From: Dictyostelium discoideum
Taxonomy: Eukaryota
Length of the DNA stretch: 64,000 nt
Direction of reading: 5' to 3'
Assembly: GCA_000004695.1 (NCBI GenBank)
Contig: CM000152.2
Coordinates: 128,001-192,000 of the forward strand
Shown here: positions 2,346 through 42,015 of the stretch, in pieces
Numbering within the stretch: the first letter of the stretch is position 1
Layout of the letters: each line of letters opens with the position of its first letter
The notes under the pieces: model-generated
Database searches by the model: none
Told to the model about the DNA's origin: nothing
What the model saw: the letters and a program-made list of their open reading frames with translations, nothing else
Program-made: the position numbers and the translations under genes

Positions 2346-12572
<10,227 letters not shown>

Positions 12573-16947: not shown

Positions 16948-17263
16948 TTAAGCTTGTTGTTGTGTTTGTGGTTTTTCAATCTCAGAATAATAATTTGAAG
17001 TGAAACCAGTTTTTAATACATTAATTGAATCACCGACATGAATAACCCTATTGATGAATTTGCTATTATCAATGACAGCATAAGTTCCAAGTAAAACTTT
17101 TTCACCAATTTTACAAGTTACCTTTCTAAAAGTTTTCAAAGTTCTTAATGGTTCATCATCATTATATGGATCCATTATACCATTAACTTGATCAACTACA
17201 ACTACTGGACAACGTGCATTTGCTTCTGCAATGGTTAATTCAACATTATTATTATCATTATCA

Positions 17264-17296
<33 letters not shown>

Positions 17297-18199
17297 ATAC
17301 TAATTAATTTCCAATTATCTTCTTCAAAAGTATTAACACCAGAAATTAGAATATTTGGACGATATCTATCCCAACCAAGGTGTGCTTGAATTTGTTCACC
17401 TTTCTCTTTACGAGTTTTGTCAATTCTAATATTAGTTTCATGAATCGATTCTTTTGATAAAATCATAATTTGACAACTATTTGATAAAGAGTTCTTGTAG
17501 AGTTTAGAAGCTTGGGTATTGGCATTCAAATTATCACTCATATGAGTACGAATCTTTCTTTGCCAAATACCTTCTGGACACATTTGAACTAATCTAAAAC
17601 CTTTATCAGCAGTAGTACCATCAGCACTACCACCAATGACTTGATCTAACCATTGTGCACATTCATCACCTTCATCATAACATTGTGATTGGTTATCAAA
17701 CATTGCAACATTATTATAAATTCTCTTTTCATCTAATTGTTGTAATTGTAATGGTTTAGTTGAAATTTTTAATTGTTTTTCAATACCTTTTTTTGAAATT
17801 ATTAAAAATTCACCATCTTTTGAAAATGATGTTTCAATTGTTGATAATATTGGATACGCTTTTTGTGCACAATATCTATTATTATAAATAATCATCCATC
17901 TTCTATCATTTTCAAATCCATATTCTGTTAATTTACATTTTTTTAATTCAATACCTTTACATGCTTTAACTAAAATTATAATTAATTAATTAATATTTAT
18001 TTATTTGTTTTTTATACAAAATAAAAATAAAAGACATACCTGGATAAATAATGATATTTTCAATTTTAATTTGATTTTCATTAATTTTACTTAATCTATT
18101 AATATCATTTTCACTAATAAAATATTTTTTCAAACTATACATTAATAATGCACTTGAAAAAATTACTACTGAATATTTTAATAATATTGATTTATCCAT
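16948..18199 (-). CDS. MOSC-domain protein (MOSC N-terminal beta-barrel plus MOSC; mARC / Moco-sulfurase C-terminal family), about 384 aa, 2 exons.
   Basis: join(18199..18040,17969..16948) on the minus strand; the intron 17970..18039 is 70 bp (GTATGT..ttttag), phase 1. Exon 1 encodes MDKSILLKYSVVIFSS...IIIYP. The spliced junction gives IIIYPVKACKGIEL, matching the mARC N-terminal motif LWIYPVKSCKG. Downstream motifs: GDECAQWLDQV, RPNILISG, and conserved Cys in AEANARCPVVVVDQVNG. There is a poly-Ser insertion (SSSSSSSSSS, encoded by (TCA)n 17266-17300). Confidence 0.8.
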
Positions 18200-20477: not shown

Positions 20478-20700
20478 TTTTATTTATTTATTTATTTATT
20501 ATATATTTAGACAAATACTAGTATTTATACAATTTATTTCCAGTTAGTTGTTGATATTTTTTTATAAAATTTTTTTTTGGTTTTGGTTTTTTTTTTTTTT
20601 TTTATAGAATTTTAAAATATATAAACCTCGGTGTTTTTATATATTATTATTATTATTATTATAAAATGAAATAAAATTAAAATTAAATTTTAAAAATTAT

Positions 20701-26172: not shown

Positions 26173-26426
26173 ATGAAAGAGAAAATTATTAAAGCTGTGG
26201 TTCTTGGTGATGTAACAATTGGTAAAACATCATTATTAGTTACAAAAAAAATTGGATTTCCATTGGAATATATACCCACAATATTTGATAATCACTATTT
26301 CGAAATAAAAATAAATGACCAAATTATGAGAATTGGTTGTTGGGATACTGGTGGTGGTGAGGAATATCCTCGTATAAGGATGTTTTTTTTTATTTTTTAT
26401 TAAAAATTTTAATTATTATTTTATTT

Positions 26427-26465
<39 letters not shown>

Positions 26466-27011
26466 AGGACCATTATCATATCCACAAACAAATTTATTTT
26501 TAATTTTATTTTCAATATCTTCAAGAAATTCATTTAATAATTGTGAAACATATGTATGTAATTTAATTTTAATAATATATATTTGTTTTTTTTTTTTTTT
26601 TTTTAATCACATATTAATAATAAATAAAATAAAAAGTGGTTACCTGAAGTGACAAAATTTTTACCAAGTGTACCAATAATATTAGTTGGCACAAAAACGG
26701 ATTTAAGAAATTGTGATGATTATAAAGATAAATCAACATTTGTAACATATGAAGAAGGATTGGAGATGAAGGATAAAATTAATGCATCTGCATACCTAGA
26801 ATGCTCATCATTATTAAATAAAGGTGTAGATGATTTGTTCGATACAATGGCAATCATTGGTAATAATGACCTAAAATCAATAATTCCAAATCAATTACTT
26901 AGAGATCATTATAACCAATCACAAAGGAGTGAAATTTATGAAGCTCAAAGAAATAATTATGAAAATAATAACAATAATAATAATAATAATAATAAATGTA
27001 TAATTTGTTAA
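26173..27011 (+). CDS. Atypical Rho/Rac-family small GTPase, copy 1 of a tandem pair. It has a CAAX box (CIIC), and the catalytic Gln is replaced by Gly. 3 exons.
   Basis: Exon 1 is 26173..26377 (or ..26371), exon 2 is 26468..26553, exon 3 is 26637..27011. The G1 motif GDVTIGKT fits GxxxxGKT. Switch II is WDTGGGEEY, where canonical Rac has WDTAGQEDY. Also present: RPLSYPQTNLFLILFSISS, the G4 motif LVGTKTDLR, the G5 motif ECSSLL, and C-terminal KCIIC. The exon-1 donor at the position homologous to copy 2 reads GGATGT, not GT; the only in-phase GT donor is 6 nt upstream (C|GTATAAGG) and would delete two residues. Confidence 0.7.
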
Positions 27012-27064
27012 ATAAAAAAATGAAATTAAAAATTTTAATTATAATAATAATAATAATCCTTTTC

Positions 27065-27110
<46 letters not shown>

Positions 27111-27235
27111 TTATTCAAATTTGTGAAACATAAAAAAAATAAAGAACCAAAATATTAATAAAAATGGAAATTATATAATAAAAAAAAAACAGGTTATTAT
27201 TATCACATTTTATTTTTCTAAACCAAACTAAAACA

Positions 27236-27276
<41 letters not shown>

Positions 27277-27489
27277 ACCAAAATGAAAATAAAAAATTAA
27301 AAAATTAAAAAAAATTAAGATATTTATAAATTTTGTGCTTATTTTAAAATTAACCAATCAAAACTGACCAACAATCACTTAATATTTTGACTTTTTTTTT
27401 TTTTTTTTTTTTTAATTTTTAATAGGAAGTTTTTTTTTTTTAAGTTTTTGAAAAAAAAAAAAAAAGTTTTATTTATTATTATAAATAAA

Positions 27490-28262
27490 ATGGAAGAAAA
27501 TAAAATTAAAGTGGTATTGGTAAAACATCTTTATTGTATACAAAAAGGTAGAGGTACTTTTGAAACATACAATCCTACCTTATTTGAAGATCATATAAAA
27601 ATAAACAAAGATGGTAAAGAATATAATTTAGATTGTTGGGATATTAGCAGTGGTGCTGAGGATTATTCTCGTTTGAGTATGTCTTATAGTTAAATTTTAT
27701 TATATATAGGTTTTTTTTTTTTTTTTTTTTTTTTTCATTTGATTATTCAGTTTTATTTATTCTATTTTTAATTTTATATTTCTGTTAATAAAAAAACAGG
27801 ACCACTTTTATATCCAAATACAAATGTATTTTTTATTTGTTTTTCAATATCTTCAAGAGACTCATTTAATAAATGCACATGGGTATGTATTTAATTTCCA
27901 CCAACGAATATAAATAAATATTATTCAGTAAATTAATTTTTTCTATTTTGGGAAAAAAAAATTAAAATAAAAAGTGGGCCAAAGATTTAACTGAATATTG
28001 TCCTGACGTACCAAAGATATTGGTAGGAACTAAAATAGATTTAAGGGATGATAATGATCCAAATAAATCTGATTTTGTAAAATATAAAGAAGGTATAAAG
28101 ATGAAGGATAAAATTAATGCATCTACATACATAGAATGTTCGTCATTATTAAATAAAGGTGTAAATGATTTATTTGATACAATTTCAATCTTTAGTGACA
28201 ATAGAATACAAAGTAATTGTAATAATAAAAATCATAAAGAAAATAAATGCATTATTTGTTAA
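27490..28262 (+). CDS. Atypical Rho-like protein, copy 2 of the tandem pair. It is a probable pseudo-GTPase with a degenerate P-loop and no catalytic Gln; CAAX CIIC. 3 exons.
   Basis: join(27490..27676,27801..27883,27975..28262). Introns are GTATGT..aaacag and GTATGT..aaaaag, with phases 1 and 0. Where GDGAVGKT is expected the protein reads MEENKIKVVLVKHLYCIQKGRGTFETYNPTLFEDH, with no Gly or Lys of the Walker A motif. Switch II is WDISSGAEDYSRLRPLLYP. The G4 motif LVGTKIDLRDD and G5 motif ECSSLLNKG are retained, and the C-terminus is KCIIC. Exon/intron positions are identical to copy 1, consistent with tandem duplication. Confidence 0.65.
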
Positions 28263-28514
28263 ATAAAATAAAATAATTTTTATTATTTATTTTTTAAGTT
28301 TTCCGTTTTTTTATTAAAAAATTTTAAGTGATCAATTTTCCGACCTAGATATTTTAATTTTTTTTTTAAAAAAAAAATTCCCTGGTCCGACTTAAAATTT
28401 TACAAAATCAGAAAAAAAAAAATATGCATTTTTTTTTTCTATAGTTTTTTTTTTTTATTTTTATTTTTTTTTTTTTCTAATTTTATTTTAATCAAAATTA
28501 ACTTTGTTGTGATA

Positions 28515-33593
<5,079 letters not shown>

Positions 33594-34377: not shown

Positions 34378-35635
34378 TTTTGATTTGTATTGAATTTTTT
34401 TTTTTAATACGACGGGAATTGATTAGATTTTGTGCGTTTTAATTTGGATAAAATTGAATTTTTATGTAAAGAGTTGTTTATAATGATATTATTTATCGAA
34501 GCCAATTTAAAATTTAATATAATATAGCTTTTAAAAAATATTATATATTAAAATTTAAAAAAATTTAAAATTGGTAATTATGAAATATTAAAAGGGAAAT
34601 AAAATAATTATTATTGGTAAATGTTTAATGAAAATTGAAAATAAAAAATAATTTTTTGATTCTGTTGTTTTTTTTTTTTTTTGTTTTTTTTTTTGTATTT
34701 TTTCAAATAAATAAATAAAAAAAATAATAATTTAAAAAATAAAAAAAATTAATAATTAGTATAAAAAAGTAATAAAAATAGAAATTATAATAATTATAAA
34801 TTTTTTTTTTTTTTTTAAATACATTATTAAGAAAAACTGCCTTTAAATAAAAAGAAAAAAAAAAAGAAGGCAACCAGTACAAAAAAAAATTATTTTTCAC
34901 CACAATACTCAAATTTTTATGTATCCAGCCAGCTTATAGATTATAATAATTACTATTATTATTATAATATTTTTTTAATACATCTTTTGTTTGTTGGTAT
35001 GAGGTGTGGTAAAATAATATTTTTTATTATAATTATTTGCCATATTTTTTTATTTTTTTTTTTTTATTTTATTTGCTTTTGTTTATTACATCATTGGATT
35101 TTTTTTTTTTTTTATTTTATTTTTTTTTTTTTATTTATTTATTAAAAACTTACAAATTATTTCCTTTTTTTTTTTCTTTTTTTTTTTTGAATTAATTGAT
35201 TGCGAGAGTGAATTAAAAATGATTAATATTTGTGAAACCTTTTTGCCTTTTATTCTTTTTTTTTTGTAATTTTTTAAAAAAAAAAAAAATTAAATAAAAT
35301 AAAATTTAAAATAAAAAAAAACAAAAATTAAAAAAAAATATTATTATTTTTTAGCATTGAAAAATTGACATTTTGTGACACTTTTCAAATAAACTTAAAA
35401 AAGATTTTCAAATCTAGATTTTAAATTCGATAATTATAATATTTTTTTTTTTTTTTATTACAATAATGGTTTTTTTTTTACTTTATTTTTGGGAATTTAT
35501 TAATAATTTATGATTATTTTCGTAATAGTTGAAACTTTATTTTTATTTTTTTTTTTTTTTTTTTTTAATTTTTTATTTTTTTTTTTTTTATAATAATAAA
35601 ACAAGGGGTTAAAAAATTAAGTTTTACTATTTTTT

Positions 35636-36615: not shown

Positions 36616-37921
36616 TACATACATTATCTTGAAACTCTTTATGTAAATAAAAAGTAGCATGACAAAAGATAAATCTAATAATGAAAGATCTTAAGAAATC
36701 ATCCAATAAAAAGAAAGAAAAGGATGGATGTAAATCAACACATTCAAACAATAATTTTGAGATGATCTCTAAACTGTTTTGAGCCAATAAACTAATGTTA
36801 TTAAATGTTTTTGATGGTATCTTATTGCCACAAGAGATATCACAAAAAGCACTAATTGGATCGTGTAAAAAGAATGTAAATAAATTACCACATTTTAAAT
36901 TTGATACCAATTCTAAAAATAAATGATAGAAAATAAAGATATCAATAAATATGTATATTGTATGTGAGATATATAAATAATGTACATACTCTTTGGTATT
37001 GATTGTGGGGATAATAGTGAAACGAATGGTTGATTAAATGTTGGAAGTTCATTGAAAATATCACTTGATTGAGAGTTCACAATTAAAAAGAATGGTTTTC
37101 TACAAAATGGTAATAAATCCATTGGATATAATGATTCAACCTTTGTATTGAAAGGTGCTTCATTATATTTATAAATTGGAATATTTGATGTTGTTGATGT
37201 TGAAGTTGAGTTTGTTGTTGTTGTAGTGGTGGTGGTTTGAGCTGTTACATTTGTTGCTGTTGTTGTAGTGGTTGGAACTGTTACATTTGTTGTAGTATTG
37301 TTGTTGTTATTATTTACTGTTGGTGAATTTATTGCTTGTGAGGGTTTTTGCATATTTAATGTTAAACCTTTTGTAAACAATTTATTATATAATGGATTTG
37401 TTGCTGTTGCTGTTGTAGTAATTGGAATATTTGTATTTGAATCATCAATCAATGATGGTACAGTTTCTTGTTGAATTGATGGTGGTGGTTGTATATGTTG
37501 ATTTACATGATTATCTTCATTTGTGAAACCATCAGCACAAATATAGAGTAACATTGCTTTATTATCACCCAATTCCTTGAATGAATATGATAAAAATAAT
37601 AATATTTGTGAAATTGTTGGCCTATACAATAAGTATTTATGTGGATTCCTTTTCTTAATTCCACTACCATTACCATTTTGTTGTTGTTGTTGTTGATGAT
37701 GTAAATGTTGTTGAAGTGGTTGTGAGGGTATTGTTGTGTTTTGTTGATCTGTTCCATTATTCTTTTCTTTTGCCTCTGCTGCTTGTTGTTGTTGTTGTTG
37801 TTGTAATGCTGTTAATTGTTGTTTTAATTTCATATCATTTTCTTTTGCTTCACTCATTGGTTCATATTCTAATGATTGTGTCATTCTAAACATATCTAAT
37901 GTAATTTCACTAAATTTAATC

Positions 37922-40686: not shown

Positions 40687-42015
40687 ATGGCAAAAATAAT
40701 TAAACCACCAACACAAGAAGAAATGAGAGATTTAACATCATTATTATCATCAGGTGAACCATATGAAATATTAGGATGTGATCCTGATTCAACACAAAAA
40801 GAAATAACAAAAAGATATAGAGATTTAGCAAGAAAACATCACCCAGATAAACAACAGCATAATGGTAATAATAAAAACGATGGTGGTGATATGATGACAA
40901 AGATTAACAATGCATACAAGTTACTCTCAAATGAAAGATTTAAAGAAGTCTATGACGTCTATCTATTACAAGAGATGATGATGGATGGTGATGGTAGTGG
41001 TAGTGGTGGTGTTGATTTTGATACAGATAGAATATATCGTGAAGCTAGATTCAAAAACATCTTATTAACCTCACTTGGACTCTTATTCAACACTTTCTCA
41101 ATCCCATTCAGAACTATAGCTGTTGTAATTCAATCAAATCCAACCATAATCAAACCAATGACTGTACTAAAATCAATGACCAAAGGACACGGTTTCTTCA
41201 AAGGTCTATTCAGGGGCACCGCCTTCCTCCTCTCTTCATCAGTATTAGAATTAATTCGTGAGAAATCAATTGAAACTTCATTTAAATATATTGACAATTT
41301 AATAATACCATCATCATCATCATCTGACAGTGGTAGTGGTAGTGGTGGTAGTAAAAAATTACAAATTTTAAAATCATTTATAAATATATTCACTAAAGCA
41401 ATATTAAATTTCCCAATTCGTATGATTGGTAATATTTTAATATTGTCACCACCTGGGTATGGTGTATTTAGAGTTATTAAGGATGTAATATTACGTTATG
41501 ATCAAGCCACCACTGGTAATATCATTATGAGCGTTAGCAATGGTAGAGCCCCGCCAATTCAGTGGAAGAATTTATTCTACTCGTTGGGTTATTCATTGGC
41601 AATTGTTTATAGTAAAAAGTTGATTATAAAAGGTTTGAAGGTTATTGATATTCATGTTTACGAAGGTAGTATCAAAGATCCAAATAGTAAACTCTATCGT
41701 TACTCAAACTATCTCCTTAGTAAAACTTTATTCCGTGTCGCTTTGCAAACCATCCTCGTTAATCCATTCGATGTTTTGCATTCTCAATATCCACGTATCC
41801 TTTTAGATAGTTGGTTAAATGGTTCCATACCTGTACCTGTTGCTCAGAATCCAATCTCATTGGCAATCGATATCTATCGCTCAAATAATAATAGTATAAC
41901 TAAATTCTTTAATGGTGTAATTCCATTATTCTTTTGTAAGATTTTCGAAGATTTTTGTGAGCAATGTGATGTTAGTGATATTGATGATTATGAAGATGAC
42001 GATATTTATGCTTAA
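40687..42015 (+). CDS. DnaJ (J-domain) protein with a hydrophobic, possibly membrane-associated, C-terminal region, 442 aa.
   Basis: Single ORF. The J domain is YEILGCDPDSTQKEITKRYRDLARKHHPDK (invariant HPD) ... INNAYKLLSNERFKEVYD. A Gly/Ser linker and several hydrophobic stretches follow (LLTSLGLLFNTFSIPFRTIAVVI; ILNFPIRMIGNILILSPP). It is transcribed divergently from the profilin-like gene across an 820-bp intergenic region. Confidence 0.85.
   Translation: MAKIIKPPTQEEMRDLTSLLSSGEPYEILGCDPDSTQKEITKRYRDLARKHHPDKQQHNGNNKNDGGDMMTKINNAYKLLSNERFKEVYDVYLLQEMMMDGDGSGSGGVDFDTDRIYREARFKNILLTSLGLLFNTFSIPFRTIAVVIQSNPTIIKPMTVLKSMTKGHGFFKGLFRGTAFLLSSSVLELIREKSIETSFKYIDNLIIPSSSSSDSGSGSGGSKKLQILKSFINIFTKAILNFPIRMIGNILILSPPGYGVFRVIKDVILRYDQATTGNIIMSVSNGRAPPIQWKNLFYSLGYSLAIVYSKKLIIKGLKVIDIHVYEGSIKDPNSKLYRYSNYLLSKTLFRVALQTILVNPFDVLHSQYPRILLDSWLNGSIPVPVAQNPISLAIDIYRSNNNSITKFFNGVIPLFFCKIFEDFCEQCDVSDIDDYEDDDIYA

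Follow-up and report, generated by a model that had tools for sequence, protein, structure and literature searches.

The genes racN and racQ of Dictyostelium discoideum form a tandem pair of Rho-family genes in the 64,000-nt stretch analyzed here (GCA_000004695.1, contig CM000152.2, positions 128,001 to 192,000 of the forward strand; hereafter the window, from whose first letter all coordinates are counted), an AT-rich region that we take as chromosome 3 of strain AX4. We consider it probable that RacQ is a copy recently disabled in the NC4-derived laboratory lineage and that RacN is an atypical, GTPase-deficient Rho protein. Comparison of orthologous loci suggests that the missing P-loop of RacQ is most simply explained by ordinary recent gene decay and not by an evolved pseudo-GTPase. 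An earlier reading made from the sequence alone (the sequence-only reading) had taken the second copy for a membrane-targeted pseudo-GTPase. That claim fails because the P-loop was lost by a frameshift confined to the laboratory lineage, because the orthologs keep GKT in frame, and because the open reading frame (ORF) of strain AX2-214 ends in an early stop.

Both members of the pair are already known, named and uncharacterized rac genes. In exact look-ups, the spliced translation of racN was identical to Q54YY4/XP_642068 and that of racQ to XP_001134575.1/Q1ZXJ6, and XP_001134575.1 is listed as DdRacQ in Table S1 of Filic et al. 2021 (PMC8305917). A review counts 20 rac genes plus racK_ps in D. 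discoideum, so the statement of the sequence-only reading that the copies are unlike the known Dictyostelium Rac genes was mistaken: they are two of the 20 named ones. The identification of the second copy as racO was also considered and rejected, as the published RacO primer encodes KIVTVGD-LIGKTTLLMT, which belongs to another gene, and Table S1 of PMC8305917 names RacQ. The present analysis contributes a cause for the loss of the RacQ P-loop and a discrepancy between the AX4 reference and both AX2-214 and cDNA. The gene models are as follows.

26173..27011, + strand: racN (RacN), exons 26173-26371, 26468-26553 and 26637-27011, 219 residues
27490..28262, + strand: racQ (DdRacQ), exons 27490-27676, 27800-27882 and 27975-28262, 185 residues in the AX4 reference

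The gap between the end of the racN stop codon (27011) and the racQ ATG (27490) is 478 bp, and each gene has two introns at homologous positions, the first in phase 1 and the second in phase 0; exon models and spliced products thus bear out the tandem arrangement described from the sequence alone. The racQ donor GTATGT at 27677 reproduces the annotated 185-residue protein, giving EDYSRLRPLLYP, and an alternative GT 6 bases upstream yields a 183-residue product for which an exact look-up found no database record. The Pfam Ras family (PF00071) matches RacN over residues 7-167 (E = 2.3e-32) and RacQ over residues 25-158 only (E = 4.6e-24). For both proteins the closest relative of solved structure is Rac1 (E = 6e-44 for RacN, in an alignment covering Rac1 residues 5-173, and E = 8e-32 for RacQ).

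The P-loop lesion of racQ

Orthologous loci from seven other genomes were compared with the AX4 reference, and the racQ DNA alignment comprised AX4 and five other loci. In project PRJNA1300491, the isolates retained as D. discoideum are AX2-214, CR116C and OT3A (PMC12745789). Loci L001 and L003 were assigned to CR116C and OT3A, and L002/L008 (GCA_054883475.1) was taken as AX2-214, the strain left by elimination among those listed in PMC12745789. The racQ orthologs of CR116C and OT3A lie at positions 3001-3806 of L001 and 3001-3807 of L003, respectively.

In CR116C, OT3A, 'cf. discoideum' and D. citrinum, the racQ DNA reads ...GTGGTATTTGTTGG[CT]GA-TAAAGTTGGTAAAACA... at the P-loop. These intact loci encode V-F-V-G-D-K-V-G-K-T (G-E-S-N-V-G-K-T in D. 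citrinum), with GKT in frame. A 16-nt deletion, with its junction at about 27516/27517, is common to AX4 and AX2-214 and was found only in this laboratory lineage among the aligned loci. It removes the codons for F-V-G-D-K-V and shifts the frame, so that the GKTSLLYTK codons are intact but out of frame. The AX2-214 ORF, which does not have the extra G described below, stops after 35 codons. In the AX4 reference alone, an extra G at 27547, 30 nt downstream of the deletion, restores the frame. A lesion shared by AX4 and AX2-214 against intact orthologs, together with a premature stop in AX2-214, is the pattern of a young unitary pseudogene. Outside the lesion, AX4 racQ carries no further disruptions and has a ratio of non-synonymous to synonymous substitution rates (dN/dS) of 0.28-0.39 against its orthologs. 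The features of racQ that matter here are as follows.

27510..27551, + strand: out-of-frame remnant of the P-loop and helix alpha-1, S-G-I-G-K-T-S-L-L-Y-T-K-R-stop, from the three-frame translation
27637..27663, + strand: degenerate G3/switch II of RacQ, WDISSGAED, with a one-residue insertion and the equivalent of Q61A; its length varies among orthologs
28248..28262, + strand: C-terminal CIIC (CAAX) of RacQ and stop codon; CIIC or CTIC in orthologs, CTIC in D. citrinum

All motif strings quoted in the sequence-only reading were recovered, namely GDVTIGKT, WDTGGGEE, VVLVKHLYCIQKGRG, WDISSGAED, TKTD/TKID, ECSSL, and CIIC in both proteins. As that reading had it, the second copy has no in-frame Walker A motif, the in-frame sequence there being VVLVKHLYCIQKGRG. 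The same reading had also named, as an outcome that would overturn it, the presence of the Walker A Gly and Lys in a different frame or splice model. Both residues are indeed there, in another frame, and no splice model brings them back: GKTSLLYTK (27519-27545) is separated by fewer than 15 nt from the in-frame TFETY but stands in a different frame, and no intron fits between them, for which reason splice rescue of the P-loop was rejected. In the three-frame translation, stops bound the remnant frame at either end, and it contains no ATG.

The protein encoded by the AX4 reference was also compared with structural models. Homology of AX4 RacQ to Rac1 starts at RacQ residue 26, which corresponds to Rac1 residue 31. 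In the AlphaFold model, residues 13-35 form a low-confidence coil without alpha-1, the predicted local distance difference test (pLDDT) score averages 58 and 49 in the two 10-residue blocks that make up residues 11-30, and the core is confident from residue 36 onward. The CR116C control model has an alpha-1 helix at residues 17-26 with pLDDT 86-92. The 185-residue RacQ of the AX4 reference is thus predicted to lack both the P-loop and helix alpha-1. In the region of the Rho insert, the AX4 RacQ model has a short helix at 119-123, and the CR116C control has only a three-residue turn.

The AX2-214 annotation fuses the two genes into one protein, P0108 (381 residues; L002 2001-4068), in which ...NNNKC of RacN is joined to TFETYNPT... 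of RacQ, seemingly a result of the gene predictor passing over the frameshifted start of racQ. A search for RacQ homologs returned no further orthologs and no transcript-derived sequences.

RacN and the racN-racQ subfamily

RacN retains G1, switch I, G4, G5 and the CAAX box. In every ortholog, the catalytic Gln and the Ala before it are both Gly, and in the laboratory lineage Val stands at the G12 position as well.

26206..26229, + strand: P-loop of RacN, GDVTIGKT; Val occupies the place of Ras G12, and the bases at 26215 and 26218 occur in the AX4 reference alone
26341..26364, + strand: G3/switch II of RacN, WDTGGGEE, with the equivalents of A59G and Q61G; base 26364 (E for D) is private to AX4
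26997..27011, + strand: C-terminal CIIC (CAAX) of RacN and stop codon, kept in all orthologs

Numbered on the 219-residue product, in which W58 pairs with Rac1 W56, the substitutions are V14 at the G12 position, G61 at the A59 position and G63 at the Q61 position. The P-loop reads GDVAVGKT in AX2 and GDGAVGKT or GDAAVGKT in wild relatives, which thus have Gly or Ala at position 14; both the AX4 reference form and the AX2 form match Walker A, GxxxxGK[ST]. The catalytic Gln is missing from both copies (DTGGGE in RacN, DISSGAE in RacQ), as had been read from the sequence, and both keep G4 (TKTD/TKID), G5 (ECSSL), the CIIC CAAX box and the switch I Thr (YIPT/YNPT). Among RacN orthologs, the Gln is absent from 8/8, representing five species, with DTGGGE in seven of the eight and YDTRGGGE in D. 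dimigraforme. The racN ORF is intact in all eight genomes; G1, G4, G5 and CAAX are conserved, and dN/dS between orthologs is 0.2-0.55, with synonymous divergence (dS) up to about 0.5. Because DTGGGE or DTRGGGE occurs in all orthologs, the other motifs are conserved and dN/dS is well below 1, the loss of the Gln in RacN is old and maintained.

The closest sequence relatives of the pair are Rac1 and RhoG, with 46-49% identity to matches from outside Dictyostelium. Shared with these Rac1/RhoG-type proteins are the G-domain, TKxD, ECS[AS]L, the switch I Thr and CAAX, and putatively a shortened Rho insert; the insert region is present in RacN but is 5 residues shorter than that of Rac1 in the phmmer alignment, and RacN also has a long Asn-rich C-terminal extension. 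Unlike Rac1 and RhoG, the pair has Gln61 replaced, by Gly in RacN and by Ala in RacQ, and Ala59 replaced as well. In the Rnd and RhoH proteins, changes at the Ras 12, 59 and 61 positions abolish hydrolysis, which leaves these proteins constitutively bound to GTP. RacN resembles them in its substitutions at the equivalents of these three positions and in its CAAX box, but it has no specific kinship with them: the best 60 matches of solved structure were Rac, Cdc42, RhoA/C and RhoG, with no Rnd or RhoH among them. The resemblance is convergent. The description "Rnd/RhoH-type constitutively GTP-bound" therefore stands for RacN as a plausible analogy, given the conserved loss of the Gln and the low dN/dS, and falls as a statement of relationship.

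From motifs that parallel those of Rnd/RhoH and of oncogenic mutants of Ras and Rho, it is plausible that RacN is a GTPase-deficient, prenylated, atypical Rho protein that would bind GTP, hydrolyze it poorly or not at all, and be constitutively "on". The CAAX box suggests that it may be prenylated and anchored to the membrane, and its activity may be controlled by expression instead of by a GTPase cycle; developmental expression is reported in the review, which places the peak of RacN at 5 h of development and that of RacQ at 1 h. RacN is thus a reasonable candidate for a constitutively GTP-bound Rho protein that arose outside animals.

RacN and RacQ form a clade that was found only in D. discoideum, 'cf. 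discoideum', D. citrinum, D. dimigraforme and D. firmibasis, and their next paralog in AX4 is RacM, with 43% identity. From these sequence comparisons, the subfamily appears to be fast-evolving and restricted to D. discoideum and a few close relatives. The tandem arrangement is kept in CR116C, OT3A, 'cf. discoideum' and D. citrinum, and no second rac copy was found within 4 kb on either side of the racN ortholog in D. firmibasis and D. dimigraforme. The motifs of RacQ vary within the subfamily. Its P-loop is one residue short in the discoideum clade (GD-KVGKT) and reads GESNVGKT in D. citrinum; the length of switch II varies as well, with the DxxG glycine absent from 'cf. discoideum' and a shortened switch II in D. 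citrinum.

CR116C is far more diverged from AX4 than AX2 is: identity to AX4 is about 92% in coding sequence downstream of the pair and 85-87% over the rac locus itself, with dS of about 0.13 for both rac genes. These tropical isolates are described as genetically diverged from AX4 (PMC12745789). Between CR116C and OT3A, racQ has 9 non-synonymous and 2 synonymous changes (dN/dS of about 1) and racN has 1 non-synonymous and 6 synonymous changes, which hints that constraint on racQ may recently have been relaxed in the CR116C/OT3A lineage too.

Private AX4 differences in racN and racQ

AX4 and AX2-214 were compared over 22 kb, with length differences in homopolymers and microsatellites set aside. 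L002/L008 is 99.3% identical to AX4, and 16 substitution columns were found, six of which lie in a 191-bp stretch of racN exon 1 and the beginning of its first intron (26215, 26218, 26252, 26364, 26379 and 26405). At the background rate, 0.09 substitutions are expected in such an interval, which gives a Poisson P(>=6) of about 5e-10 per interval. Two further AX4-private differences lie close together in racQ.

26372..26379, + strand: racN intron-1 donor region; 26378-26379 are GG in the AX4 reference and GT in 7/7 other loci
27536..27547, + strand: AX4-private differences in racQ exon 1, within 12 bp; G at 27536 (A elsewhere) and the extra G at 27547

The AX4 state is derived at all eight of these positions, the AX2 base being the outgroup base, and the changes are G>A twice, G>T, T>A twice, T>G, A>G and one inserted G. 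Of the six in racN, four alter an amino acid, one destroys the intron-1 donor and one is intronic; the two in racQ lie in the stretch that was already frameshifted. At the protein level, the AX4 form has GDVTIGKT for GDVAVGKT, K-I-G for K-S-G and Glu for Asp. With the donor at 26378-26379 reading GG, the AX4 annotation uses a cryptic GT at 26372, six bases upstream, which drops Ile-Arg from switch II; the cryptic junction is 26371|26468 and the canonical one 26377|26468. Independent evidence at the cDNA level comes from the RacN mutagenesis primer of Li et al. 2023, who worked with strains Ax2/Ax3: this cDNA-derived primer reaches across the canonical junction, matches the AX2-214 coding sequence spliced at the canonical donor exactly and has 10 mismatches to the annotated AX4 coding sequence. 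In the same study, every Rac except RacQ was cloned. A construct named "RacN G14V" appears in Table 1 of PMC10072221, and its primers change the Gly at the Gln61 equivalent to Leu (..GGT GGT TTA GAG..), which is consistent with position 14 being already Val in laboratory-strain racN.

We favor, with moderate confidence, the interpretation that these patches are errors in the AX4 reference, because the changes are clustered, because four of the six in racN alter an amino acid and a fifth kills the donor, and because their spectrum is mixed. It is unlikely, though a serious candidate, that they are real mutations of the AX3/AX4 lineage. In favor of real mutations, the AX4 reference has been through finishing and curation, and its gene models agree with its sequence; moreover, the strain behind the primer evidence may be Ax2 instead of Ax3/AX4. 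Chemical mutagenesis, by which AX3 was obtained, can leave mutations in clusters. Nitrosoguanidine, in turn, is expected to give a GC>AT pattern, so that it is a possible cause of the patches whose signature does not fit the changes observed. Eight derived changes in patches of 191 and 12 bp also stand against about 10 other columns in the whole 22 kb, several of which are tightly clustered or are alignment shifts. If the patches were real nonetheless, AX4 RacN would be without two switch-II residues or would be mis-spliced, and racQ would be truly frame-restored; if they are reference errors, RacN would have 221 residues and a normal switch II, and racQ would be a frameshifted pseudogene in all laboratory strains. 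Gene conversion between the two copies was rejected as a source of the private racN bases, since the homologous racQ stretch is deleted and AX4 has no third close paralog.

The other differences between AX4 and AX2-214 (20678-20696, 21548, 23806, 23845, 23973 and 34841-34844) also tend to be bunched, four of them in a stretch of 19 bp and two in one of 4 bp. Such bunching is consistent with local patches of low quality in one or the other assembly, and some of the differences may come from shifted alignment where the sequence is AT-rich. Exact look-ups of the AX2-type RacN, of the truncated AX2 RacQ peptide and of the exon-1 ORF gave no matches. A homolog search with the 76-residue racN exon-1 ORF returned no candidate sharing three 5-residue words, a negative that carries no weight, as RacN itself is in the database.

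Weighing the readings, and the surrounding locus

The 16-nt deletion frameshifted racQ in the NC4-derived lineage and left the AX2-214 allele a pseudogene, and the extra G of AX4 is either a sequencing error in the reference (the more likely case) or a private AX4 change. RacQ in laboratory strains is then most likely a null allele, and even if the extra G is real, it would be at best a destabilized relic without alpha-1. Several points weigh against our overall reading. The AX4 racQ ORF runs uninterrupted through its 185 codons, with G4, G5 and CAAX retained, so that a protein without a P-loop could be made. Stage-specific expression of racQ is reported in the review, and the locus is therefore transcribed. 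The RacQ orthologs combine an abnormal G1 and G3 with purifying selection (dN/dS 0.28-0.55, significantly below 1, Fisher p 0.012 to 6e-5), which would fit a nucleotide-independent protein. In addition, the identity of L002/L008 as AX2-214 comes from elimination and not from a strain label in the record, and the GTPase deficiency of RacN is argued by motif analogy only.

These observations lend some support to the idea that AX4 RacQ functions as a prenylated pseudo-GTPase, no longer in need of nucleotide binding, beside its GTP-locked paralog RacN, but we regard it as quite improbable. Pseudo-GTPases are G-domains without nucleotide binding, such as CENP-M and the pseudo-GTPase domains of p190RhoGAP, and the recognized ones have a stable fold and an ORF conserved across species. 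The RacQ ORF of the AX4 reference resembles them in being a G-domain without G1. Unlike them, it owes this to a frameshift private to one lineage, which takes away alpha-1, a core part of the fold, as well; the P-loop-less state is found in AX4 and AX2 only and is not conserved in the orthologs with an intact ORF, the ORF of the sister laboratory strain is truncated, and the frame-restoring G is private to AX4 and lies within a suspicious patch. A gradual version of the same idea is improbable as well: RacQ would represent a natural series of stepwise losses of the nucleotide pocket under selection, from a full P-loop and short switch II in D. citrinum, through the P-loop one residue short in the discoideum clade and the additional loss of the DxxG glycine in 'cf. 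discoideum', to the NC4 lineage without P-loop and alpha-1, with the AX4 G real and the 185-residue prenylated protein made and functional. The wandering motifs of RacQ do leave room, as a minority reading, for a long-running drift away from nucleotide dependence. At the other extreme, both genes might be decaying duplicates without function in any strain, which we judge very improbable. In its favor, close species share 58-88% identity within this fast-evolving subfamily, the excess of non-synonymous changes in racQ between CR116C and OT3A points the same way, and no effectors are known: in yeast two-hybrid assays, the WASP GTPase-binding domain (GBD) was bound only by Rac1A/B/C, RacA, RacB and RacC, and Fbp17 only by RacC. 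Such decay is at odds with the eight intact racN ORFs and their motifs conserved across a dS of about 0.5, and with racQ ORFs that are intact outside the laboratory lineage, dN/dS being below 1 for both genes. Recent loss of racQ in the laboratory lineage alone thus remains the reading that we prefer.

As a Rho-family copy disabled by mutation, racQ resembles racK_ps, the one annotated rac pseudogene of D. discoideum; unlike racK_ps, it is counted as a gene, since its ORF is open in the AX4 reference. For NC4-derived strains its status may have to be changed to that of a pseudogene, which would alter the count of functional Racs and explain the omission of RacQ from systematic Rac screens. The RacN of the AX4 reference (219 residues, GDVTIGKT, switch II two residues short) is probably not what laboratory strains express. 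These results have little weight for general biology and are of interest at the level of curation, with a useful by-product in the probable reference error patch, which bears on how the RacN protein is modeled and on whether racQ counts as a gene.

No tRNA genes were found in the 64,000-nt window. The genes that flank the pair are ordinary eukaryotic ones, encoding a MOSC-domain protein (16948-17895, - strand), a SCAI-domain protein (36913-37893, - strand) and a DnaJ protein (40687-42015, + strand), and a further neighbor at 3798-12572 (+ strand) is a low-complexity ORF of 2924 residues. Downstream of racQ, 28509-33514 (+ strand) contains two long ORFs (484 and 1184 residues) in which poly-Asn tracts are very long and the ankyrin signal is weak; they are annotated as a single 1646-residue protein in AX2-214. 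The AAT repeat at about 29011-29063 is offset by 36 bp in the alignment of AX4 with AX2.

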